From positions 310,001 to 374,000 of the forward strand of contig CM039002.1 in NCBI GenBank assembly GCA_017499595.2: a stretch of DNA of 64,000 nucleotides, given 5' to 3'. The notes under the pieces were generated by a model. That model did not search any database, was not told where the DNA came from, and saw nothing but the letters and a program-made list of their open reading frames with translations. Below, in pieces: positions 19,562-58,061 of the stretch. The DNA comes from Psilocybe cubensis. Lineage: Eukaryota. The translations under genes were made by a program, and so were the position numbers. How positions within the stretch are numbered: the first letter of the stretch is position 1; each line of letters opens with the position of its first letter.

Positions 19562-21163
19562 TCACCACAATTCATCGGCGTCCGGGAAATATACCATCGG
19601 CACCATATCGCTCCCACGGATTTTGTTGTTCGCTAAGAAATAGAACGTCGAATGAGACGCAACCGGCTCGTGGATGGACACCAAAGTACCATCCTGCTCC
19701 AACCAACCGAGAGTCAAGCAATCCCGTGGTGCTTTCTCTGCTTCCATGCATACTTGCACGGAGAGAAGCTCTTTTCGCCGTGACCAGATGACATCTGCCA
19801 ATGTGCCGTCCTCCAGATAGCAGTTATGCAAAATGAGATTCCGCAGACTTGGAAGGACATCGATCTCCCCAGGCTCTTTCATCAGACGCCGAAAATCGTT
19901 GGCACTGGTGATGTTGGAAAGGATATTCAGGGTAATGACTTTGGTCAGATGTTCCCTCAACTGTGGGAAAAGCTCCAAAGAACGCCCGTCGATCGAAAAA
20001 GTCGTAACATCGCAGCCCGAGCGATCGATGAAGTCGGTGAGAGCCTTGGCATCGCCCAACGTGAGCGCTTTCCTGTCGGTAATCTCCAATTCTGAAAGCA
20101 TAGGGAGCGTAAAAGCGTTGAAAATTATTTCAAAGTTATCTGGACGGTCGCAAATCAATCGGGTCAAGTGTGAAAATATGACAGGGGACGAAACCGGTTC
20201 ATACGACCTTCGTATGCGACGCATCCTCAGAGTCTTCAGGGATTCACACTTGGAGAGTGTGCTCATCGTGGACTGTGACAAGTCCATAAGATGGAGGGTG
20301 ATTTCTACGAGTCGTGACCATGAGACGTCCTCTGGCATCGAGGCATCCAATGATTTACCCCAATCCACGGTATGCAAAACTGGTGACGAATGAAGCACTT
20401 GGAAGAAAGTCTCTAAGCGGTTCATATCCCATGAATGGACGCGAACGCGATAGGATTCCAGTGCCCCCACGTCGCCAGGTCGCATGCTCGAGAACGCCTC
20501 CTGGACGTAGCCAAATAATGTAAATGTGACGTTCTTCCACCTGCTTGCTTTGGAAACAAACAGTTGCGCGATGTGCAGCGACGCCGGATCAGGCGTCATG
20601 TACTGTTCCAATTCGAGTGTCAAAGGACAGTCGCCTGTCATATCCAGAAGGAACGAAACATATTCAACATCCGTCATGACTGGACAGACAACCTTGATCG
20701 TTGACCACAGCGTCGGGGTGTTGTGAACGGTGTCGCGCCAGAATTGACAGACATGGGTTAACACAATAGGTGTAGTTGGCGACGAGCCGGAACTTATACG
20801 CCTCATTATCTGACGACAGAACCGGTCTTTCGGACTGCTGCTGTCGCTATGCAAAACATGGGAAAATATCTTGGTCAAAAGTTCATTTGGGAGTCGATTG
20901 ATGAAGTCGGTTTGGGGAATAACACAGTATGCCGGGATGGTCAGCCACTCGAGAGCATTTGAGGTGTCGATGGGGGAGAAATGGTGCTTCCACAATATCC
21001 ATTGAATGATGTGGTGGGTTTCATTTAAGATGATTTGCAATTTGGACTGGTTTGCTTTCAACGTATTCGTCGCGTACGACAAGAATGTGTTCCAGTACAG
21101 ATGAAATGCACCGTGCTTATTCTTTGGAGTGTATATCCATGGCAAGCTGCCTTGAATAGACAT
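19562..21163 (-). CDS. F-box/LRR-like protein
   Basis: Single long ORF; INRLPNELLTKIF...PIVLTHVCQFWRDTVHNTPTLWSTI; C-terminal LPSLRNLIL. First ATG at 21163. Confidence 0.85.
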   Translation of the reverse strand: MSIQGSLPWIYTPKNKHGAFHLYWNTFLSYATNTLKANQSKLQIILNETHHIIQWILWKHHFSPIDTSNALEWLTIPAYCVIPQTDFINRLPNELLTKIFSHVLHSDSSSPKDRFCRQIMRRISSGSSPTTPIVLTHVCQFWRDTVHNTPTLWSTIKVVCPVMTDVEYVSFLLDMTGDCPLTLELEQYMTPDPASLHIAQLFVSKASRWKNVTFTLFGYVQEAFSSMRPGDVGALESYRVRVHSWDMNRLETFFQVLHSSPVLHTVDWGKSLDASMPEDVSWSRLVEITLHLMDLSQSTMSTLSKCESLKTLRMRRIRRSYEPVSSPVIFSHLTRLICDRPDNFEIIFNAFTLPMLSELEITDRKALTLGDAKALTDFIDRSGCDVTTFSIDGRSLELFPQLREHLTKVITLNILSNITSANDFRRLMKEPGEIDVLPSLRNLILHNCYLEDGTLADVIWSRRKELLSVQVCMEAEKAPRDCLTLGWLEQDGTLVSIHEPVASHSTFYFLANNKIRGSDMVPMVYFPDADELW

Positions 21164-21791
21164 CTGTATACCTGTGAGAGGTGCTTCCAAAATGCAATTA
21201 GCGACCGAAACTCACAGTCCTCCAGAATCCTGAACAGGGGGAAAGAGGAACACACCTTTTCCAAGACCCGGTCTAATATACCCCACAGGCACTGCCGGGC
21301 TCCCAGGTAATTTAAAACCGAGCCGTTCCTTCTTTCAATCACGAGTAACGACAAGCACTCGCCGTAAGTCCGTTTATGCTCCAACGCATTTGAACTGTAT
21401 AGGGAAAATATCAACACGTTGAACACGAGGCACGCTTGCACGCTTCAGAGTGCGCTTCAAAACCGTTCGGAGTAGAATATAGCGGGTCACACGATGCAAA
21501 GAACGCTTACCTGACAGCCGCTTACAGGTCAGGCTTATTACAAAAATGATGAAAGACAGTGTACAGGTTGTCTAAGGCGGAAGCGCCTTTTTATAGTTGT
21601 TAAATGTTTGCTTGGCAGTGGGATTGAAACCTGCGAGTATGTACTTCAAACTTCGAGTTGTAAGGCGGCGGCGGCGGCTTGAGCAGGCAACCTTGCTGAT
21701 CGGGGATCCTGAGAAACATTGATAATAAAAGACGGAGTTGGAAGCAGTGCTATTGATAGAATGACGAACATTTGTTACACCCAAATCGACA

Positions 21792-27822: not shown

Positions 27823-29646
27823 TCACATTTTATCTAGATTGATCCGTTGGCCATACGTATACCTGACCTGCAGGTTCTCAAACTCATCCAGAAAAGACAG
27901 GTCGCTCATCATCTTGTTCTCAGCTTCGGAATCGACCATGGGTAATGTACATTGGAATATTTTGATCGCTAATCCCCTCATATCCCGCAGATTCAGGAAG
28001 CGCTCGAGGACGACAAAGTCGACGGTGCATATGTCGGACAAGATCAGTGTGTGCAGTTGTGGCATAATGGCGGCCTCGGAGCTGGCCATGACGGTATTGA
28101 GCAGGCTGAGTGTCTCGCCGGAGGCGCGGAGAGTTTCCACTAACGCGAAAGATCGTATAAACTGGACAAATCCCTCGTCTAGCGGGTCGAATACGGCGGG
28201 AGATAGGTATAGAGTGGCGTCGAGCACGCTGATGGATTCTACACCGTAGAGCAGGTGTCTGAGAAGGAAAGACGATATTGGGCCGACTGGATCGTCTTTC
28301 TTGGGAGGTCTGCTGCTGCCTACTCGGAGCTCGAATGTGGTGTTTCCGAGGGCGAATGGGTTGTTAGTCCGACACGGGGTGATGTTATATACGATGTTCA
28401 GGCTGTGCAGGTTGGCTGATATAACGAGAGAGGAAGGGAACAGACTCGAGCAGCATCTACTCAGGTATAACGCAAGAATGCTGAGTGAGCTTTTCGCCAG
28501 CATCTCTGGGCTGTAGATGCTGGCGCTTAGGATCAAGGTACGCAAATAATCGAAGTCGAGATTGATATCCCCCAAGAACCCTAGTACATCCCCCAGTTGT
28601 TGGTTCCCCGTTATTTCCATATGCCGGACTCTGCTCAGGGAGTTCCGGCATGTTGTTACGTTTTCCATATTCACATCTTCAGCTTTTCGATCTTTGGAAG
28701 ACACCAGCTGCCGTCTAACCACCAATTTCTGGAGGTTGATCAACATGGGGTTGTACACCATGTCGATTAACTCTGAAATTTTCAGATTCGTTGGCTGCGA
28801 CCCAGAATCCAGCGTGAGTCTTTGTACAGAAGCTGGAATCCAGCTCAAAGACCCACAATCAAAAGACAGGTTACAATTGAACTCCTTCAGCCTCGGAGCA
28901 CAAGATGAAAACGGGACTCCACTCAAATCTTGTTCACGTTGATGGTCCAACAAATCCTCTCTGCGCACGGGGAACCCGCACACAAACGACTCGAGTAGAG
29001 GCGCCGGACGGAAGAAGAACTCGAAGAGACGCAGATTCTCCTCTGCTCTCCATCCCACCGGCGGGGTATTCAAATTTGTCGCTGTAACATCCCGATCTCG
29101 CAATGTGTTGCTCCGGCACATACTAGAGGACGTAGCGACCAACTCAAGCTTCCGCACGCGGGCCCAGTTCTCTTCGAAGAACGCGCGCATCAACTCAGCC
29201 TTGTTCGGTCGGACAGGGTGCCATCGCACCGTGAGCGGTGCGTCGCCCGTGCGTGCCAGAACCTCCTTCATCCACTGAGTGTTTCCGAGAGATAGCAGAA
29301 AATCAGCGTCGATGGTGTTAGCCCAGAGCGAGTGCGCGCTGAGCGCGGCGGTGCGCCATGCGCGGTTGACCTGCGACGCGGAGCGCAGGCACTCGATCGC
29401 GCGCAGGGGGACGTACACAGCCTGTGCAATCGGCGCGTCGTCGTCCATGTTATTGTTCATCGCGAATATATGGAGGAGGATGTCGTCCGGGATCCTGTGC
29501 ACTGCTGGTGGTATAGGTATAGGTGTAGGTATAGGTATAGGCGTAGGCTTAGGCTCCTCTGCTAGCTGTGTGAGGGGCTCCCATTCGATGTCGTCGATGT
29601 CTGAAAGCGGTTCCCAGGATCTTCGGGACTTTAAAAATTTGAGCAT
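27823..29646 (-). CDS. F-box/LRR-like protein
   Basis: About 607-aa ORF; VHRIPDDILLHIF...ASQVNRAWRTAALSAHSLW...EVLARTGDAPLTV...PAPLLESF; C-terminal MPQLHTLIL. Confidence 0.85.
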   Translation of the reverse strand: MLKFLKSRRSWEPLSDIDDIEWEPLTQLAEEPKPTPIPIPTPIPIPPAVHRIPDDILLHIFAMNNNMDDDAPIAQAVYVPLRAIECLRSASQVNRAWRTAALSAHSLWANTIDADFLLSLGNTQWMKEVLARTGDAPLTVRWHPVRPNKAELMRAFFEENWARVRKLELVATSSSMCRSNTLRDRDVTATNLNTPPVGWRAEENLRLFEFFFRPAPLLESFVCGFPVRREDLLDHQREQDLSGVPFSSCAPRLKEFNCNLSFDCGSLSWIPASVQRLTLDSGSQPTNLKISELIDMVYNPMLINLQKLVVRRQLVSSKDRKAEDVNMENVTTCRNSLSRVRHMEITGNQQLGDVLGFLGDINLDFDYLRTLILSASIYSPEMLAKSSLSILALYLSRCCSSLFPSSLVISANLHSLNIVYNITPCRTNNPFALGNTTFELRVGSSRPPKKDDPVGPISSFLLRHLLYGVESISVLDATLYLSPAVFDPLDEGFVQFIRSFALVETLRASGETLSLLNTVMASSEAAIMPQLHTLILSDICTVDFVVLERFLNLRDMRGLAIKIFQCTLPMVDSEAENKMMSDLSFLDEFENLQVRYTYGQRINLDKM

Positions 29647-30579
29647 GATTCGGATATAGGTTATCGTTGTAGCAACTTGGACTTGTGGGTGTAGCATTAA
29701 ATAAACGAGGTCCCTTTTCTCGGGGCGGGATTTTTATATGTAAATTAATTTTGAGTGGTGGCACCTTCATTGTGTTTAGTGTGCGCCCGCTTTGGGGAGG
29801 ACGCGATGGGCCGCCATGCACCGGGCCACGGCGCTTAATGGCCACACTTACTATTACTAGTCAGGGGTATACATGAAGCGTATTTGGAATTGTGCCATTG
29901 GGTTATTGAACAACGCTGTCGTTCAAGGGAGAATTCCTTACTTTGGATCTGAATGGCGTGTTTTCAGTAATTAAGCGCCCCGGACAGCAAAGCGCGGCAG
30001 CCGCTGTATTTCATGGGAGAGAAAGTACTTGGTCGATTCCCTGTATCCAATTATTTTCTACTTAGGGTGTTGATTGGTCTCGCTGGCAATGTATTGACCT
30101 GAGGAGGTTCAATGTTGAACGTTGAACCTTAACTCACCGATTGTATACTCATCATGATTCCACTTGGCTAAATCTATTTTTCCGGATATAAATATATGTA
30201 GTCTCGAAGTCCTCTTAATCGCCAATTATCCCGTCACCGCGTGGTTCTATACAATTGTGGATCGAGGACGAAGCGTCTGTTCTTGGTATCGTAGTACCAT
30301 TGGAAACCATTGATTGTAGTATATCTCTATTTTGAAGAAGACATGATCAAGGTACCTTGGTGGAAGGTCCTACCTTGGTGGAAGGTCCTACACGCTCTCT
30401 CGTCATTTATGCGACCGATGTCAGATTTTTAGGTTTGATACTGTAATCTGCCAAGTGGCAACGCAGCTTTTCACATTTGGACACGCGTCTTTGTTCTCTT
30501 CTTTACTTACGAGATTAATTGCCTCCAGAATACGCATATAAGCCAGCGCGGTTGAAATGAAGCCCCCAAGAGTATCAAA

Positions 30580-42695: not shown

Positions 42696-43539
42696 ATGCA
42701 ATTCTTTACTCTCTCGAGCTTTGTTGCTATCAGCAGCATTATTACTAATGTCGCCGCGCATTATGCACCTGTCAACACCACTGGATCAGACCCTATCTGG
42801 AGCTTTCCGTATCAATTGTCGTTAAAGTTCGTAGTGGTATAAGCTGAAATAATTTTCTCGTTACTGACTTGATTTTCAGTGGAGGAGCATTGAAAACAGA
42901 TCCATCTATCAGTTTTGTGAACGACACACTTCACTCGACTTTCAATCTCACCGACTCCTTCACGGTCGCAGGGTGGCTTAGGGCCACCGGCACAACCGAT
43001 TGGCGCACTTTTTTCGCATTCGAGTCTAACGATATCAATACATCGCTCCTCAACTTCGCTCTTGCACCTAACACCATGCAACTTTACTTTGCCTACATGG
43101 TGGATAATGTAGTGAACAATCGCATCAATGTCTTCGCCCCAGTGACCGCGCCCGGACCCAACGTCGATTTCCACTTTGCGTTAGCCAAGGATGGCAACCA
43201 GATTTACCTCTATCTCAACGGTGTTAAGGTTTTCAGTTACACCATGACCGCTCCGATCTATGATTCACCTATGGCAAGTCGCTATTTCGCGTTTTCTGTT
43301 CATGTTTATGACCTCTTGAGCCAGAAATACATTATTTTGGGAAGAACGAAATTCAACAATGTCGGCCAGGCTCAGTGGGAAGGGATAATTCACGGGGTCG
43401 ATGTATTCGACAAAGCACTGACCCCTGTAAGTGTGCATTATCAGATTAAATCGTCCCAACACCGAAGCTGAAGTTTTATTGCGTACAGTTTGAAGTTGGA
43501 CGTGAAATGGCTTTGACCGAGCGAGCAACATATGTGTAA
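42696..43539 (+). CDS. Secreted LamG/concanavalin A-like (Laminin_G_3) domain protein
   Basis: Signal peptide MQFFTLSSFVAISSIITNVAA; SFTVAGWLR...HFALAKDGNQIYLYLNG...IILGR...WEGIIHGVDVFDKALTP. Introns include a probable in-frame GC-AG intron 43274-43324 and 43427-43488. Confidence 0.8.
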
Positions 43540-44518
43540 AAATTTGCACACACCGGAGTTCCCTTGCGTAAGATTTTACGTTGCCAAGTAGATTTGTACC
43601 GAAAAGATGTGAGAAAATAACAGAAAATAACAATGTTGAGAATCTGAATGGGTTTATAGTCAGTTGTATTGAGAAGTATATCATCCAGTGCAGGTTCTCA
43701 GAGATTGAGAACAACGTACCAGCCACATGTCTTCCGTCACACTCACGCAACCTTTGAATCATGGCTGGGAACCGTGGGTACACAAGAAACTAATAAATCT
43801 GGCAGTCCGGACGGCGAGAAAACTTTCCGTAGAAAATGGCTTATCATTAGAGGGAGAAAGTGCAAAGAACGGCACGCCAACACTGGTCACGGTCACACCT
43901 GAGTAAATGTATTATGTAATCGCGCAGCACTGGTCACGTCCGCTCTTGTTTTGGTTCTTGACGGTCAAACTCAAATTTGGTGCTCACTCAGTACTCAAGT
44001 ACTCAACTTCGGCCTCGTCAGTATCTATGCTCGTCGTTCGAGGTATTTAGGTGAGTCTGACTGTATATATTGATTCACTCAAAGTTACACACGTTACTCA
44101 GGATCATACCCAACTCTAGTTGCAGTGGCACGTACTAGTCTGTGGCGACGCTGCTCAATCCAGATTCCCGCATAATGCATAACTGGATGTGTACACTTTC
44201 CCGCTGCAACTATATCAAAAGATCTTATTTTGTATCTGCCATTCAGTAGAGGCTGATTCCCGGTATGTGGTTTTGTGTCAATGAAAATCTGCATTTTAGT
44301 AATTTTCATTTTCTACGCCGACAAGCAGGGGTAGCTATCGCTCAGAGTATTGTCCGCCTAGCCAGTTTAATCGAATAACTCAATTGGTCCCAGAATCTAC
44401 TGAGAATCTAGATCACCATATACAATGTAAGAAACATTTTCACAAATTTACATCTTGTTAGGAAATTATTGAACTTTGATAGATGGCCGCTGGCACCTAT
44501 AGACGAGAGAAGAGATTT

Positions 44519-47188
44519 TCAAACTAAAGATATGAAGGCAATCACACATGATGCACAGACAACAAGGAGCACTACCGCATACCGTTGATACCGCTGGATA
44601 GCAATTTGCATGGATTGTAAGTCTTTCACAGATCTCTCTGCTTCTTTTGATGACAGCTTGCTGAGCAGAGAAATTGCTCTATTATACGCTTCTTTACCCT
44701 TGTTAAAGCGTAAAAGGCAGTAATGGATCCTACTTTCTTGCTTCAAACACAATCCTTCCATCAAATTGTTGTCCATATGCGCAAACATTGACTCTGCGCG
44801 GCAGAACAGTGCCAATGCGCGGCCCGCCCTCCAGCGTTTTGCATTTGTTAAGGCGAGTTGGTATATACAATATCCCATCTGTGCGTCGTTCCTTAACGTT
44901 CGAAAACTCTCAAATGCTTCCATTATGCCTTTTTCAGCTTCATCGAATTCGCCTTGCATGTGATGCGCAATGGATTTCTGGTAAATCGAAATCGCCGCCT
45001 CTCTGAGTGGGCCATGTTTTTTATAATATTCTGCTGCGTCTGACAAGAGCAGGATTGCCTGTGCCGGGTCGCGATTTCTGAGTATTCTCCCCAATTCCCG
45101 TTTGTAATCCGCCTCGCATGAGGGTACGTCGTTGGCCGAGCAGATATACTTGATTTTGTTCAGTTCATTCAATGCTTCATCGAAATCATTCTGCTCAAAA
45201 TGCACGATTGCCAGCCCGCGCTGGATTGCTATTCGTCTGCGTGGCTCGATTCCAGAGTGGCTCTGTGCGCTGCGATAGAGGGCTATTGCTGCCTTGTGAT
45301 TAGCTCGATGGATGCGATAAATTTGTGCCAGTTCACTTTCAATCTCGGCAGTCCAATCTGGTAGCTTTAAAGGATCGCAACTCCTCAATGCCTCCTGTAG
45401 CGCGTTCTCCGCCTCTGTGTAGTGGTCCAGTCGACAGTGCAATACTCCCAGACGAAGCAACGCAAGTGGATACATGGGATGTTGTATGATTTCTTTGTCT
45501 GCCTTGGGATTCGCGTCTGGTTCAAGAGATGTGACCTCCAAACTCTCACGCATCACTGGCTTCACTGGCATCCCCAAATCTCCACGGCCACGATGATCCT
45601 GCCGTTTTTGCATGAGATCGACTATCTTCTGTGCAATCTCTGTCTTCGGCGTATTCCATATGAGATAATTACAGTATCTCAAACCAATTTCGACTGCTGT
45701 ATCGAAATCCCTTTCTTCCGCATCTTCGTTTAGCATCCCAAAAAGAACACTCTCTGCATTGGTATATTCATTCGATAAGCGCTCAGCACACTCCAGGAAA
45801 TTCGGGTTTCCGGGGTCATTTCCTGCAGCGCAGATAAGTTGGAAGTAAAACGCCCTAATGTTCACTTCGTGCTGTGCATTGAGGGGGTAATTCTCTACCA
45901 TATGCTTGCGTACAGTGGAGTGCATTTGCAGAACTCGGTCATCCGGTTTTCCTGTGGGGGCGTTTTCTTCGTGTAACAAGTAAGTTTGTCGGAGAACATC
46001 TTCAACGTCATCCACATTCGGGATTCCAGGAGCTATTTCTCGAATATTTTTTATTCTTATCCCCCCAGGCAGACATGCGATTATCCGTAGGAGTGCGATC
46101 GCTGCGGGGTGATGTTTCAGCAGGGGACCTTCGAGCGACATTTCGATCGAAGTGGCAAGGCCTTTTTTTACTCGGTCACCTCCTAGAAGTAACTTCCTGG
46201 CAGGGTTTACGCTTTGCTGTCCGTTCCTCCACCTTTGCAAAATCCTAGAGGTGGTATACGATTCCTGTGCCAAACTAGCCATAAGAACAATGGGTAGAGG
46301 TAGATAGTTGATAGCTGCAAGCAGCTCATCCAAGCTGTCATCGATGGCGTTCTTTGGACACTTGGACTGGAATAAATCTCTAGCTGCCTCGGATGATAGT
46401 GGCTGCAGTGTATCGAATGGTAGCCACGAGACTCCCAAGTGGACAGCAGGGGGGTAAGCAAACCGTGTGGTGATAATGATAAGGAGCTGCGTGTAGCGGG
46501 CTAAAACCTTTATAATATTGGCAACGTCTTCTCCTGCCTCCACGGGCCCCCACATAGTTTCAAAATTGTCGAATACGATGATGCGGGGTATGCAGTTCCT
46601 CTTCAGGAAGTACTCGATGTCGTTTAGGCGGTTATTTGAAGCTGAAAGATCCAAATTCAGGCTTTTTGACGTGTACTCCAGTAATGTTTGACCCTTGAGG
46701 TTGTGTTCGATACTTGATGCTTTTTGACAGCTCACCCAGTGCCTTGCGTCGCCGAAAAAGTCAACAATGCGGGAGTCATGAATAATTTTGTTTGCGAGCG
46801 TTGTTTTCCCTAAACCATGGCCACCTTTGATGGGTATATGTTTTCTAGATTCGGATTTTGACTTGAATTGGGCCAGGATTCCGTTTACAACCAGTTCATC
46901 GACCAGTTCATCACGACCGTATACATCGACAAGTGGTTCAGGAAATATTGGACCGGAACGAGAGGTATGATTTTGTTTGGGCCGGCTGACGGCGGCGTCT
47001 CTCAGACGCTCGTTTTGAAGGCGCGGAAAAAAAGTGATGTTGAAAACGTTGGTTGTTTGTGGACCATGCTGAACCTGTGAGTGTTTCAGTTAGAGCAATC
47101 GAGGAGAAGACTTGCAACAAACCGTCTTAGCTACAAACTCGCCACCCTGTATAATTACGTTTTTAGCCCCTTCAAACATATGCGCCAT
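44519..47188 (-). CDS. Fungal NLR-like STAND NTPase (NB-ARC-like plus TPR), about 873 aa
   Basis: ATG 47188 and a 48-nt intron 47075-47122, then open to 44519. YGRDELV, Walker A GGHGLGKT, Walker B IIVFDNFET, IIITTR, YLPLPIVLMA, QMHSTVR (MHD-like), followed by TPR-like repeats. Confidence 0.9.
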
Positions 47189-47941
47189 TGCTAGAATTGA
47201 GACTGTTGGGGAAGAAAGTCTACCCTACCCTAATGGTGTCATGTTTTTATTGTACAGTGTTTGTTGTTCCCACCTCGTTGGAGACACGCTCTCCGAAGTA
47301 TATATACAAGCTTCCTCTATAAGCTTAGACTGTTGAAGAACTTGACGTGCAGTGCCAGAGAGCTGCGCACATCAAAGCTCCTCGGCGGAAATGAATGCGA
47401 ACAGAACTGGGCTCAAAAAGAATGTTCCAAGGATGTACATCACATTGATTTGCTATTTTTATTTGGAAGCCTTATGAGCGTTGTTTGCTCATTATTCGAA
47501 AGCCTTCGTCATTGTGGATTATGTCAAGTCAGAAAATACTTAGTTCTCTGAATCTTTGTGATCCCGATACTATTATCTATATACTATCATTACCACGTTT
47601 CGCCAAATACCGACTTAGTTTCGGAAAAAAATTTACTCGCATTGCTCTCATCTTTCCGTATCATACATCCAATGTGAATTACTTAGGCTCGGACAATAGT
47701 ACAAGCTCAAGTTTTACTTCTCTGAAATTATCACAAGTTTTTTAGGTGACATGATCGGCCCAGATTGATCCCGGATACATAGCCTCTCGTATCAAGAAGA
47801 CTGAAGAGGCCTACTTATGTATAAAGGGACGGGAAAATTTGGTCAGCAGCGGCTGAAAATCAAACATTGATTGATAGTAAACAAAGATAAAGGTCCTTGT
47901 TTTCAACTCTAAGCAAGGTTTGAATAGTCCATGCTTGGTTC

Positions 47942-49286
47942 ATGCCCGAGAACGCTCAAAAACCTGCAACAACACATTTCCCACCCGCCGGGGCAATCCT
48001 CGATAATGGGGCTCTAAAACTTGTTGAAGTACAGGGTCTTGGCATCTACCGAGCGCAACTAAGCCCCAGAGACAACAGACCGTATGCCGTCAGATGCCTG
48101 GTATTTCCTGACTCGCCTGGACATTGCAGGCAGATGCTCATACGAGGAGTTCTACTGCACCAACTTGCGTCGGATCACATTGGCATTGCTACCTTACATC
48201 GCGCCTTTAAGCAGGACGGCATGTTATGCGTGCTCTTGGAATCTGCTTCAGACGACTATATGTCCACCCAAATTTTCCAACGTGGCCGTTACCTTGGAGA
48301 CAACTTTCTCATCAAAGACATATTCCTCCAGTTAATAGACGCAGTCGAATACATCCATTCTCTCGGTATCTATCATCGAAACCTAAACCCAGCAAGCATT
48401 GTCACTTTTGAAGATGGCTTTCGTGTTGCAATTACTGACTTTGGGCAATCTACTACGTGGGAGACCCTTAGTGAGGAGTTTAACGTTGGCAATGTGTTCT
48501 ACATGGCTCCAGGTACCAATATTTAGGCCTGCTCACAGTTTTACGTATATAAACTGATTGCATGTTCAGGGTGCCATGGGGGACAGTTAGCACCAGAAGG
48601 TAGATACTACCCTCGGTTCAGCGATATTTGGTCTCTCGGCATCATCTTTCTCAACATAACGACTGGTCGTAACCCGTGGCGGTCTGCTACTCTCGATGAC
48701 CCCGCTTTCGCAGCTTACTTGCAAAACCCTTCGGGCTTTCTGGCATCTACCCTCCCTGTCTCCCGTCAGTTTATGGAACTGCTTGTCGAGATTCTCGCCA
48801 TTCACTCCGAATATGGCCAAACCGTGCGTGAACTCCGCATAGCCATTAAAAAGTTTCATAATTTCTACTCGGACATAGTCATGTTTGAAGACTGTATAGC
48901 CACTCTTGCAAGAAGGTCTGAATTCCCAGTATACATCTATGACGAGTTTCTTGATGTAAAGATGAATTCGTACCCCCGCACAAATTTGATACACAGGATT
49001 TCTGCCGCTGAGGTAGCTGCAAAGCTTGACTCAAGTGCTATGAATTCAAAGTAGTTGTCTCGAGCACTTGGTTGTTACTTCCGACTGATTTCACTATTCC
49101 AGTCAGACAAATTTGGCAGTTCAACGGGGTCGCCATACTACTCACTCAAATAATTCAATGCTCTCAATTGAGACAAACTTTTCCGACCCTTTCTCGAGTG
49201 TCGAAACATCCGACTACGGAATGTACTACACAAGACATGCGATTTCAGAAGATTCGATGGCACCTAATTATCCACGATTGACCTAA
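47942..49286 (+). CDS. Ran1/Sks1-like Ser/Thr kinase-fold protein, predicted pseudokinase
   Basis: IKDIFLQLIDAVEYIHSLGIYHRNLNPASI, ITDFG, DIWSLGIIFLNITTGRNPWRSAT..DPAFAAYL. Intron 48513-48569. The stop is 49054 if unspliced, or 49286 with a second intron about 49051-49101. Confidence 0.85.
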
Positions 49287-49365
49287 ACGGCTCAATATTA
49301 CATAGAGGGTTTAAAAATACATAAATAAGAGATATTACGTGTGTAGTACTAGTAGCCCACGTAAT

Positions 49366-50687
49366 TCAGACCATGCTTTTATTGTATTTATCCCCTATAT
49401 CATCTTCGCTGCGTTCCATCTTCAAAGTACTAGCAGCTATTTTTGATCCCACATCATCTCTACTTGACGAAGCATCAATGCCGAGGGTAGTAGCTGTGGG
49501 ACCCGACGCAGCGTGGAATTCGGAGTCGCCAATGACACTAGAAATGCTGTCGCGCGTCCCTGGTACAAGCTCGTAGTGGACAACAAGAACTATGAGGGTC
49601 GGGAGGATACCCTGAATGTAATATTCGTAAGTTATATCACTGTCCCATCTCATACCAACATCACGTACAGTGAGAGGGACTGTGATGTCCAAAATGACGT
49701 GAATTCCGGGACTGTGGACCTTGTCGACGACAATGCACACCATCTAGGTATTTTCGCATCAGTAGTTTAATAACGTATGTATAGTGTTTCTTACCATTGA
49801 CAATGCATAAAGAGCTCCAGACTCAATGATCATAAGGAGTACACGCTCGTATACATTCTGCTTCCCTCGAGGACCCAATGCCGACGAATCTTCAGCTGAA
49901 CTGGACCGTAGGTAACTGTAAAATGACATATTAACCCAAGATTTTAATAGCATCTGTAAAAGTAACTTGCATAATCCTTCCTGCAATGAGTGCTGTGCAA
50001 TATGCCGTGTTTGCAATGATAATAAAATTGGCGGGGTCCGATACGAATAGAAGTACTGCCGTTCCGTTAGAAACAACCGAAAATCGTACGGCTGATATCA
50101 CGATAGGTCATCAGAGAACTGTAATAAAAAAGGGAACAGATAACTTACCGGCTGCACCGATCATCAAGATGAAAGGGATAATTGTGGTCCAGTAGCTTCT
50201 TCCCCATACAGCGTAGACACGCCATATGAGAATAACATCACTGATCATAAACTATCACGAGAAGCCATGTCGTTAGAAGTTTAGCTGTACGCAGGTTGTC
50301 GTAACCCTACCTGTAGAGTAGCGAGAGATACGGCTGCCTTTGCTTCCCAAAGCTCAGTTCGTCCAAGTGACAACCTCTGAATAAGAGCAGCCAAGTGCAA
50401 GGTTGAGACAATCCACATCAGGATGCTGGCCCCAAACATAACTTGCATTATCCTGGCTAGCTTCTTAGCAGTTCTACAAAATGATTCTACATTAAACGGG
50501 TCTACGGCGAGAGCAATAATGCTTACAGCAAAATCCAAATGACGACAAGAATCAAGAGCGACAAAGCGCCTTCAAGCTTCATGTTAATTTTTTGACCGAA
50601 GTGAGAGAAATTCAGGGACTCGCCATAAAGTGCAGCCTCGCATAGATCTGCAACGTAGTTGAGCTGGTTGACGTTCATGGTACCCAT
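49366..50687 (-). CDS. Multi-pass (about 7TM) membrane protein, same broad family as 1444-2769
   Basis: MGTMNVNQLNYVADLCEAALYG, probable GC-AG first intron, STLHLA, SDVILIWRVYAVWGR, MIIESGALY, GILPTLIVLVV, polar tail. Confidence 0.78.
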
Positions 50688-56394: not shown

Positions 56395-58061
56395 TCAATA
56401 ATCGAACTGTTGAAAGAAAGAGCGACGAGGAAGTCCAATGCGAGGATTACTGTATAGATCTTGGGATAGTATTGGGACAACTTTAGGCTCTCGATATTGT
56501 ATATTGATATTGAAGTCTTCCCCGTTGAGGTCGTTCAGGGCAGATTGCACTTTGGGATCGCCCGGCTCACAAAGCAAGCGTACCGCGACAGCCTTCAGCT
56601 TTCTAACCTCCGGGTGCAGTCCATCTCGCCGAAAATGCACGAATTCCAAAAGCTTCTGGTCGGAAAAATCTGCTCCTGTAGTACACTCTAGAACCTCTAA
56701 ATCCGGTAGGAAAATGCTCCCGGCTGTATCTGGAGTACACAGGAGGTCCAACAGGTTGTCGCTGAAGTTACAAGCTGGTTGGGGTGCCATATTCGTGAAA
56801 TCTGCATGGTGAATCATACCACTGAGATTTGGCAAGCAGGATAAGCGGGAAAGATTGGGGCAGAGATGGAGACACGTAATAAACTCGTCGTTCGACAACA
56901 TTGTGCAGTTAGTGATGAGGGTTTGAAGGCTACCCGGGATTCGTCGCAGAAGCGAAATTAGAGAGATTTTTGTGGCAGAGTGGCAGCAAAAAAACTGTAA
57001 ATGGGTCAAGGATGGAACTTGGAGACAATTTAAAAAGCCACATCCGTTATCGTGAAGGACCAATGAGCGAAGATCTCTAAGAGTAACTGTTTTTTCGATG
57101 GGTGCGTAGTTGAAGATTTTCTGGGGGTCAATCTCAACATGGAGTTGCAGTAGTTGCCCGCACAACTCAAGAATGTGCAACAGGGCGGATACCTGCCTCG
57201 ACTTACATGTTTCTCCTTCCAAAGTCAGTGTGGTGAGGCGTTCCCAGTTCAAAGGTAACTTTGAAAAATCTTCAGGAATGTTTCGAAGTGAGATGGCGGT
57301 GAGATTCGGTGCCTGAAAGATCCCGCTATTCTGACCCGAATATGGATGATTGTGCGACCGTAGATCCTTTACAGGGCATATCCTCAGAGATTTTAACATA
57401 GGAAAGGCCGAAGAAGGCATTTGAAAGATGCGTGCGATGTCACTTTGAGTTAAACAGAGGTCCACTTCTTTCCAACGCCGAGTGAGATTGACAACACATA
57501 CCAATAACCTGTACCCGTACGCAGAGAGGGAATAATAGTCGGGCCTGTAGAAGGATATGTACAATGGACATGCTCCTGACATAGCAAAGCAATCCAAGGT
57601 CAGTTTGCATCGCTTGTCTATGCTGTGCATCCAGGAATCAGCGACATGGATCGGTGGTGCAGGTGGGGTGGCAACATGGATTCTGGACCAGATAACGGGA
57701 GTCGTAAAGGCAATATCGCGCCAACCACGGCACACGCGAGTTAACAGGATTGGAATTTCGGTCGGGCATATTACTGCATTTGTATCAGTGGGAAGGCAAC
57801 AGAAAAAAATATGTCGTAGGACATCAACAGGGATCCGTCGAATGGGGGACAACAGTGCTTCATATTCGCTTCTTGTGGTGAGCAGCGCGTCGTATTGTTT
57901 GCGAATATTGTCGTAAATTGTGAAAGCGGCGTCCATCTCCTCACTTTCAACTCGTTCAGCTCGATTGTTTGTTGGGAAATTTGCTGTTTTATTTGGAAAC
58001 ATTCTTGATCACTGGGAGTATAATTTGTCCCTAATTCTGAAGCCAGGAAAATCTCTGTCAT
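56395..58061 (-). pseudogene. Coiled-coil F-box/LRR gene with one frameshift (pseudogene or assembly error)
   Basis: The family-typical N-terminus MTEIFLASELGTNYTPSDQECFQIK (ATG 58061) is in a different frame from EEMDAAF...LLSPIRRIPVDVLRHIF...ILLTRVCRGWRDIAFTTPVIWSRI. The shift is near 57945. Confidence 0.75.

Follow-up and report, generated by a model that had tools for sequence, protein, structure and literature searches.

What most fungal NOD-like receptors (NLRs) sense, and via which partners, is an open question, and a locus of the mushroom Psilocybe cubensis raises it in concrete form. Within a stretch of 64,000 nucleotides (assembly GCA_017499595.2, contig CM039002.1, positions 310,001 to 374,000; hereafter the window, numbered from its first letter), an NLR gene on the minus strand (ATG at 47188) and a kinase-fold gene on the plus strand (ATG at 47942) diverge from each other across 753 bp, exactly as a preliminary description of this DNA had it. 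That description proposed a guard/decoy immune module, with the dead kinase as a decoy or adaptor monitored by the NLR. Is the pair such a module, or did two unrelated genes come to lie side by side?

We lean towards the second answer: the adjacency would be due to chance, and the two, both real and maintained genes, would have independent functions and not form a dedicated sensor/decoy module. Chance is favoured because no association, fusion or shared motif was found beyond adjacency itself. The window holds a single NLR locus and a single kinase locus, and the products of both are represented among public P. cubensis proteins at 100% identity. P0001 (kinase, 351 amino acids (aa)) carries the database label "Negative regulator of sexual conjugation and meiosis", and P0070 (NLR; JR316_0005596, 862 aa) is labelled hypothetical protein. 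The locus also offers corrected gene models, a clear pseudokinase and an observation on hydrophobic segments in the NLR family.

A kinase fold without its catalytic residues

The Pfam family Pkinase (PF00069) matches exon 1 of the kinase gene at 55.4 bits (cut-off 31.7); exon 2 alone scores 19.7 bits, below the cut-off. Alignment with seven intact Agaricales relatives revealed a four-residue deletion in the glycine loop and a series of changes at catalytic positions (K51R, E69G, D147N, K149N, N152S and E191G), with DFG166 retained. The lost elements are the glycine loop, the VAIK lysine, the alphaC glutamate, the HRD aspartate, the lysine and asparagine of the catalytic loop and the APE glutamate; the statement in the preliminary description that the catalytic machinery is gone is thereby borne out. 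Since the motifs of an active Ser/Thr kinase are changed and DFG alone is kept, the protein is a pseudokinase.

The closest relatives are Agaricales kinases of about 700-770 aa, compared with 411 aa for the window protein, and share 44-52% identity with it over the kinase domain; the five full-length ones that were read have intact motifs. The N-terminal lead-in and the C-lobe motifs are common to these Ran1-like Ser/Thr kinases and the window protein, whereas the glycine loop, the catalytic Lys, Glu, Asp and Asn residues and a Ser/Pro-rich tail of about 400 aa are present in the relatives and missing here. More broadly, 854 kinase sequences of the PDB match the pseudokinase at E<=1e-5. The earlier designation of the gene as a dead Ran1-like kinase stands as far as the dead kinase fold goes; its Ran1 part derives from the source names of the relatives and from an Atlas structure neighbour called "Putative ran protein kinase" (template-modelling score, TM, 0.82), with loose placement in the tree.

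The best non-self identity of the pseudokinase is 52% among longer proteins; among proteins of fragment size it is 54%, with half the query covered. The figure does not exceed 55% in a set of 1.84 billion cluster representatives, in which the protein represents a cluster of its own. Taking the two genes together, no relative closer than 55-56% (NLR) or 55% (kinase) was found in 5.8 billion clusters / 1.84 billion representatives. A quick tree of 34 rows gave the pseudokinase an end branch of 3.99 against a median of 0.21, or about 19 times the median; because placement on so long a branch is loose, the duplication cannot be dated.

Other copies of this kinase occur among the Agaricales. In Psilocybe cf. 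subviscida, P0129 (D9619_008229, 153 aa) is a second, degraded copy, which is scrambled after the glycine loop as if by a frame shift and ends in HSLGIYH, and it shares a contig with the intact copy of that species, P0011 (D9619_008165). A copy that has decayed beside an intact one indicates that duplicates of the Ran1-like kinase arise and decay in Psilocybe. A separate, well-supported clade of second copies, independent of the window pseudokinase and with motifs intact where read (P0010), includes a second Flammula alnicola protein, proteins of Agrocybe pediades and Cyclocybe aegerita, and three metagenome proteins.

Could the window copy be a gene on its way out? Several results show that it is not drifting neutrally. 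In simulations of neutral substitution the frame was still open in 3 of 300 runs at 20% amino-acid divergence and in 0 of 300 at 30% and again at 50%, and the simulation is conservative in that it ignores insertions and deletions (indels). Among 32 Agaricomycete relatives, 129 alignment columns are at least 95% conserved, and the pseudokinase keeps 87 of these and changes 42, all the catalytic ones included. An AlphaFold2 model built on a 34-row alignment is well folded (predicted local distance difference test (pLDDT) 81.5, predicted TM score (pTM) 0.79), with residues 5-300 ordered and disorder from 305 onwards. Sequencing run X10 differs from the window at 2 of the approximately 636 kinase coding bases that it covers. 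This is a genuine pseudokinase, expressed and constrained, and a species-restricted, selectively maintained derivative of a conserved developmental kinase.

The reading frame, which the preliminary description called uninterrupted, is indeed open, but only once two introns have been removed; the spliced frame then has 1236 nt and 411 codons with zero internal stops. Exon 1 (47942-48512, plus strand, 571 nt) encodes the N-lobe, the catalytic loop, DFG and the start of the activation segment and matches P0001 at 100%. Exon 2 (48570-49050, plus strand, 481 nt), which also matches P0001, encodes the C-lobe with DIWSLG and GRNPW and then a unique tail, and exon 3 (49103-49286, plus strand, 184 nt) supplies 60 codons and the stop, with no Pfam match. 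Between them lie intron 1 (48513-48569, plus strand, 57 nt, GTACCA..TTCAG) and intron 2 (49051-49102, plus strand, 52 nt, GTAGTT..TCCAG).

Neither intron is present in the contigs of run X10, so that the kinase gene is seen to be transcribed and spliced. The nature of this run as RNA was a guess, which its intron-less contigs make credible. Intron 1 is skipped with GT..AG ends, and the X10 contigs cover 48567-48857 in exon 2 and 49101-49600 across exon 3; coverage by X10 lacks 46992-48113 and some other bins, and a further RNA-like run, X14, touches only the flanks (44187-44560 and 49236-49600). Bins without coverage, and the difference between X10 and X14, carry no information on expression or co-expression. 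The joint across intron 2 was recorded as 49048->49101; its ends read AA..CC, its short side is 24 letters long, and it would be a canonical GT..AG splice if the X10 strain has one base change at 49050. The 52-nt skip at this intron and the frame that stays open to 49286 support a third exon, with the end coordinate that the preliminary description gave. The NCBI model, by comparison, is 351 aa long, keeps intron 2 and stops at 49054; it is probably an intron-retention artefact, and its correction to 411 aa with a third exon is supported.

The NLR gene, its family and its variation

The NLR was described beforehand as an intact protein of the NB-ARC/TPR (tetratricopeptide repeat) class, and it proved to be one: the frame is open from 47188 to 44519 and both Pfam families score above their cut-offs. 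The main exon (44519..47074, minus strand) carries an open frame of 856 aa with its stop codon at 44519-44521. In this 856-aa open reading frame (ORF), the NB-ARC match (PF00931) spans residues 77-293, or about 46211-46861 on the minus strand, and scores 33.6 bits (cut-off 23.5). The TPR region (about 44900-45643, minus strand) is matched by TPR_12 at 50.2 bits (cut-off 30.1), TPR_2 at 31.7 and TPR_19 at 31.3. Within the ORF we found a P-loop, GGHGLGKTT, a Walker-B-like element, IIVFDNFE, and the motifs LPLPIV and QMHS, whose names follow plant NB-ARC work.

The stretch ahead of the NB-ARC match is only about 70 residues long and matches no Pfam family. The gene begins with a short exon 1 (47123..47188, minus strand; 22 codons, ATG at 47186-47188), used by the NCBI model P0070 and separated from the main exon by an intron of 48 nt (47075..47122, minus strand, GT..AG) that is deduced from the sequence and the P0070 protein. 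Exon 1 holds the N-terminal motif MFEGAKNVIIQGGEF (47135-47179). A motif of the form ..AKNV.[IV]QGG.F.. opens 4 of 21 family proteins (P0070, P0071, P0073 and Laccaria P0077), a count to be read with the fact that the remainder include several partial or ORF-called models from which exon 1 may be absent. Over all six frames of the window, the strict pattern has a single occurrence, the one in the NLR.

At the other end, the final 20 residues of the NLR form a hydrophobic tail (44522..44581, minus strand), and the unspliced frame ends in AVVLLVVCASCVIAFISLV. By eye, a C-terminal hydrophobic stretch, often followed by basic residues, is present in 15 of 20 homologues, and the five without it are shorter or partial; a crude automatic scan was positive for 8 of 21 family proteins and for the window ORF. 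The NCBI model removes the tail through a predicted intron in the region 44494-44581. Four differences between isolates fall within the tail, two of them synonymous and two replacing one hydrophobic residue by another when the unspliced frame is read, which weakly favours its being coding. The tail is likely a membrane anchor, and the public gene model looks imperfect in splicing out a segment common to most homologues.

A related pattern is visible across the family. Most members (P0071-P0089) have one hydrophobic segment just before NB-ARC and a second, with basic residues after it, at the very C-terminal end, so that their NLR core is bracketed by putative membrane segments. The window NLR and its nearest paralogue are without the segment ahead of NB-ARC. 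The literature that we searched held no description of bracketing hydrophobic segments in an NB-ARC/TPR family, the term TMH in one paper being a domain label only.

The NLR is closest to P0071 (JR316_0005611), a P. cubensis paralogue at 55-56% identity that is encoded on the same contig of 3.68 Mb; the best P. cyanescens matches reach 43-45%. A further P. cubensis paralogue is JR316_0007395. The NLR belongs to a fast-diversifying Agaricales family. Constraint on the gene itself can be gauged from an isolate about 2% diverged from the window (organism C, run X8). Three pieces of its assembly lie on the NLR with zero gaps. Among the within-species differences listed, 16 are in the coding sequence; 11 of these leave the amino acid unchanged and 5 alter it, whereas a synonymous share of 22% would be expected at random. 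Three differences of organism C are located in the intron at 47075-47122. On this evidence the NLR is under constraint. Its transcription is suggested by five contigs of X10 (45642-46849), and no more than suggested because they cross no intron; none lies over exon 1.

A spliced transcript of the plus strand also extends into the NLR gene from the 3' side of that gene, in the region 44047-44557. Its joints, all GT..AG, are 44047->44117, 44261->44328 and 44426->44483 in the RNA-like runs X10 and X14. It probably comes from the upstream gene at 42848-43468, which has a ConA-like lectin/glucanase domain (Laminin_G_3, 48 bits). Since the transcript overlaps the NLR 3' end, the lectin/glucanase-domain gene and the NLR are convergent and overlapping.

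Chance neighbours, shared promoter or sensor pair

The divergent intergenic region (47189..47941, 753 bp between the ATGs) does contain the TATA-like boxes noted in the preliminary description, TATATATA at 47299-47306 and TATAAAGG at 47820-47827. Words of this kind are frequent in the window (43 matches to TATAWAWR in 64 kb, against 17.7 expected), so one in the gap is unremarkable. At least half of the words of the stretch are found in each of nine or more sequencing runs, of which four may derive from the source sample itself. In organism C, one contig of 8,890 nt spans 46448-49600, which takes in the 5' part of the NLR, the gap and the whole kinase, and two further contigs cover the remaining NLR collinearly. 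The pair is therefore intact in this isolate, with indels concentrated in the intergenic region (numerous small insertions, one of 25 nt and the replacement of 50 letters; 47558-47789). A second organism (D, run X11) contributed short conserved snippets and two low-depth 151-nt pieces only.

Does the association recur beyond these isolates? Metagenome contigs scanned with a 13-protein alignment of the NLR family yielded nine loci, and a kinase was found at none of the nine (tblastn with the pseudokinase and an active relative as queries, E<=1e-3), with upstream flanks of at least 3 kb at only about four of them (L001, L004, L005 and L009). This is a weak negative; the same queries do recover the window kinase. 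No recurrent association of the NLR and kinase families emerged, the pair being seen in near-identical isolates only, in a small sample. The kinase domain is not part of the NLR polypeptide here, the two being separate genes on opposite strands, and fused forms were not encountered among relatives either: the precomputed domains of 69 longer and 38 fragment-sized kinase relatives include no NB-ARC, NACHT or TPR, and 0 of 10 long kinase relatives scanned carry NLR domains. The two proteins share no detectable motif, the 60-aa NLR N-terminus giving a local score of 25 against the 411-aa kinase, where shuffles average 27 and 345 of 500 reach 25. No protein search returned a second related pseudokinase, even though the nearest NLR paralogue is on the same contig. 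A complex prediction for NLR residues 440-845 with kinase residues 1-350 scored 0.00 without controls and is counted neither for nor against binding.

How often should an NLR and a kinase be neighbours in any case? Agaricomycete genomes encode a few hundred kinases among roughly 10-15 thousand genes. For NLRs, a mean of 72 hits per species has been given for Agaricomycetes (PMC4986451). We estimate that about 4% of NLRs would have a kinase as immediate neighbour, or about one to three pairs per genome, a fraction of them divergent. With one to three chance pairs per genome, a single pair met in a scan of many windows is unsurprising by itself.

If the two genes are neighbours by chance, as we are inclined to think, the NLR would be anchored in the membrane and would signal via its own N-terminal motif, as has been proposed for Agaricomycete NLRs with a short N-terminus. 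The pseudokinase is a shortened duplicate of the conserved Agaricales Ran1-like Ser/Thr kinase that kept the fold, DFG and the C-lobe surfaces while losing every residue needed for phosphotransfer, and it would act by binding without catalysis, competing for partners of the active kinase or offering them a scaffold. Several points weigh against this. A divergent gap of only 753 bp favours shared regulation; both genes are species-restricted and without close relatives, so that their lying side by side would be a coincidence were they unrelated; organism C retains the pair, though at about 2% divergence that isolate is too close to weigh much; a gene that is selected yet unable to phosphorylate, with partner-binding surfaces kept, has the look of a decoy or adaptor; and the family-level locus test was small, with short flanks. 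Several of these facts also speak for the guard/decoy or adaptor module, in which the dead kinase, a copy of a Ran1-like kinase targeted by pathogens, would be held by the TPR domain of the NLR beside it. The genes stand head-to-head over 753 bp, the pseudokinase is transcribed, spliced, open and folded with its C-lobe surfaces kept, both genes are fast-evolving and species-restricted and stay together in a diverged isolate, and there are precedents in plant ZAR1 with its receptor-like cytoplasmic kinase (RLCK) pseudokinases (PMC7475706) and in the kinase decoys proposed in Sordariales (PMC12258605). The idea came through the checks on expression and on neutrality that the preliminary description had set for it, and it drew no support from those on association, fusion and a shared motif. 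We nonetheless hold such a module to be unlikely, its sole support being adjacency, with 0 of 9 related NLR loci bearing a kinase and no fused forms. The nearest NLR paralogue, moreover, has no matching pseudokinase paralogue in the searches, the conserved N-terminal motif and the membrane tail suggest a signalling route that needs no kinase partner, and an active Ran1-like copy of P. cubensis, the presumed guardee, did not turn up, though no genome-wide search was made for it. A specific form of the idea, that bacterial, fungal or viral modification or capture of the pseudokinase frees the NLR for oligomerisation and a membrane-directed response, is in our view doubtful to the same degree.

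A bidirectional promoter could also tie the genes together with no contact between their products, for instance in a developmental or stress programme that feeds separate pathways. The short divergent gap, where each ATG is preceded at about 110-120 nt by a TATA-like box, and the presence of contigs from both genes in the same RNA-like run X10 fit this; yet contigs give no expression levels, the informative run is a single one, and the gap is rich in indels between isolates, with no conserved shared element evident, and we judge co-regulation distinctly unlikely. Most improbable of all is that the kinase is a recently disabled, functionless copy transcribed by read-through of a promoter that is still active. 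The loss of all catalytic residues and of the C-terminal tail, together with the long end branch (3.99 against 0.21), is what such a copy would show, and P0129 is an instance of this kind of decay; against it, the 411-codon frame is open over three exons with intact GT..AG sites, an outcome reached by 0 of 300 simulations at 30% divergence or above, 87 of the 129 conserved columns are kept, the fold is confident and X10 has the 2 differences in about 636 coding bases. Adjacency by chance thus remains the reading that we prefer.

The rest of the window holds ordinary Agaricales genes: three F-box-like genes, an indoleamine 2,3-dioxygenase, an O-fucosyltransferase-like gene, TFIIF-beta and the gene with the ConA-like lectin/glucanase domain. 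The F-box-like genes, all on the minus strand, lie at 19565-21211, 27826-29733 and 56398-58008 and score 24.8, 26.4 and 23.2 bits (cut-off 24.3); one of them has weak leucine-rich repeat (LRR) matches too. They represent another expanded, fast-evolving family near the pair. A search for repeats around the NLR/kinase pair found none.

Known NLR and kinase systems

To our knowledge, basidiomycete NLRs have no known ligand or guardee. Guardian-guardee pairs have been discussed for fungal allorecognition NLRs (PMC10197012). The preliminary description held that no fungal NLR-pseudokinase pair had been described. This stands for pairs of separate genes, none of which we found in the literature searched, where coverage was partial and "pseudokinase" meant only MLKL in the papers checked; it needs qualifying for fused proteins, since kinase decoys within Sordariales NLRs have already been proposed (PMC12258605). 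By title and abstract, the literature combining Psilocybe cubensis with NLR is human pharmacology only.

Agaricomycete strains are described as having dozens of NLRs each with short N-terminal amyloid-like motifs (NLR05/08/22/29/44), and no effector was found in the neighbourhood of these (PMC9815663). Like the Agaricales NLR of the window, these proteins have a very short N-terminus with a conserved motif (PMC9815663). In the HET-S/NWD2 pairs the amyloid motif is shared between NLR and effector, whereas the window kinase is without the N-terminal motif of its NLR neighbour.

A fungal parallel is found in Sordariales, where NLRs end in a fused Pkinase domain that comes from CHK2/PRD-4 and for which the role of an integrated decoy has been suggested (PMC12258605). 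There as in the window pair, a kinase copied from a conserved housekeeping kinase is associated with a fungal NLR, a decoy role having been proposed (PMC12258605). In these Ascomycota the kinase and a NACHT NLR form one protein (PMC12258605), whereas the window has a separate gene, derived from a Ran1-like kinase, beside an NB-ARC/TPR NLR in a basidiomycete.

Could the window hold the first unfused fungal NLR/pseudokinase sensor pair, in which a dead Ran1-like kinase serves as bait or adaptor of a membrane-anchored NLR, the two being expressed from one divergent promoter, evolving fast and jointly, and convergent with ZAR1-RLCK and Pto-Prf? We consider this quite unlikely. If true, it would provide a compact, genetically tractable sensor/bait pair in a transformable species and extend the decoy-kinase principle from plants to mushrooms.

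The resemblance to the plant systems is one of general design. The genes of the tomato kinases Pto and Fen are clustered with that of the NLR that monitors them, Prf, and in that system Pto is active and the interaction is proven. Linkage of kinase and NLR is alike in the two cases; there is no homology beyond domain classes, and the window kinase is inactive. ZAR1, for its part, is not known to neighbour the genes for its pseudokinases. With the RLCK-XII pseudokinases RKS1 and ZED1, it joins an NB-ARC NLR to an inactive sensor or adaptor of kinase fold, the same combination of parts as here (PMC7475706). ZAR1, however, has LRRs and a coiled-coil N-terminus where the window NLR has TPRs, and its binding has been shown, that of the window pair being putative.

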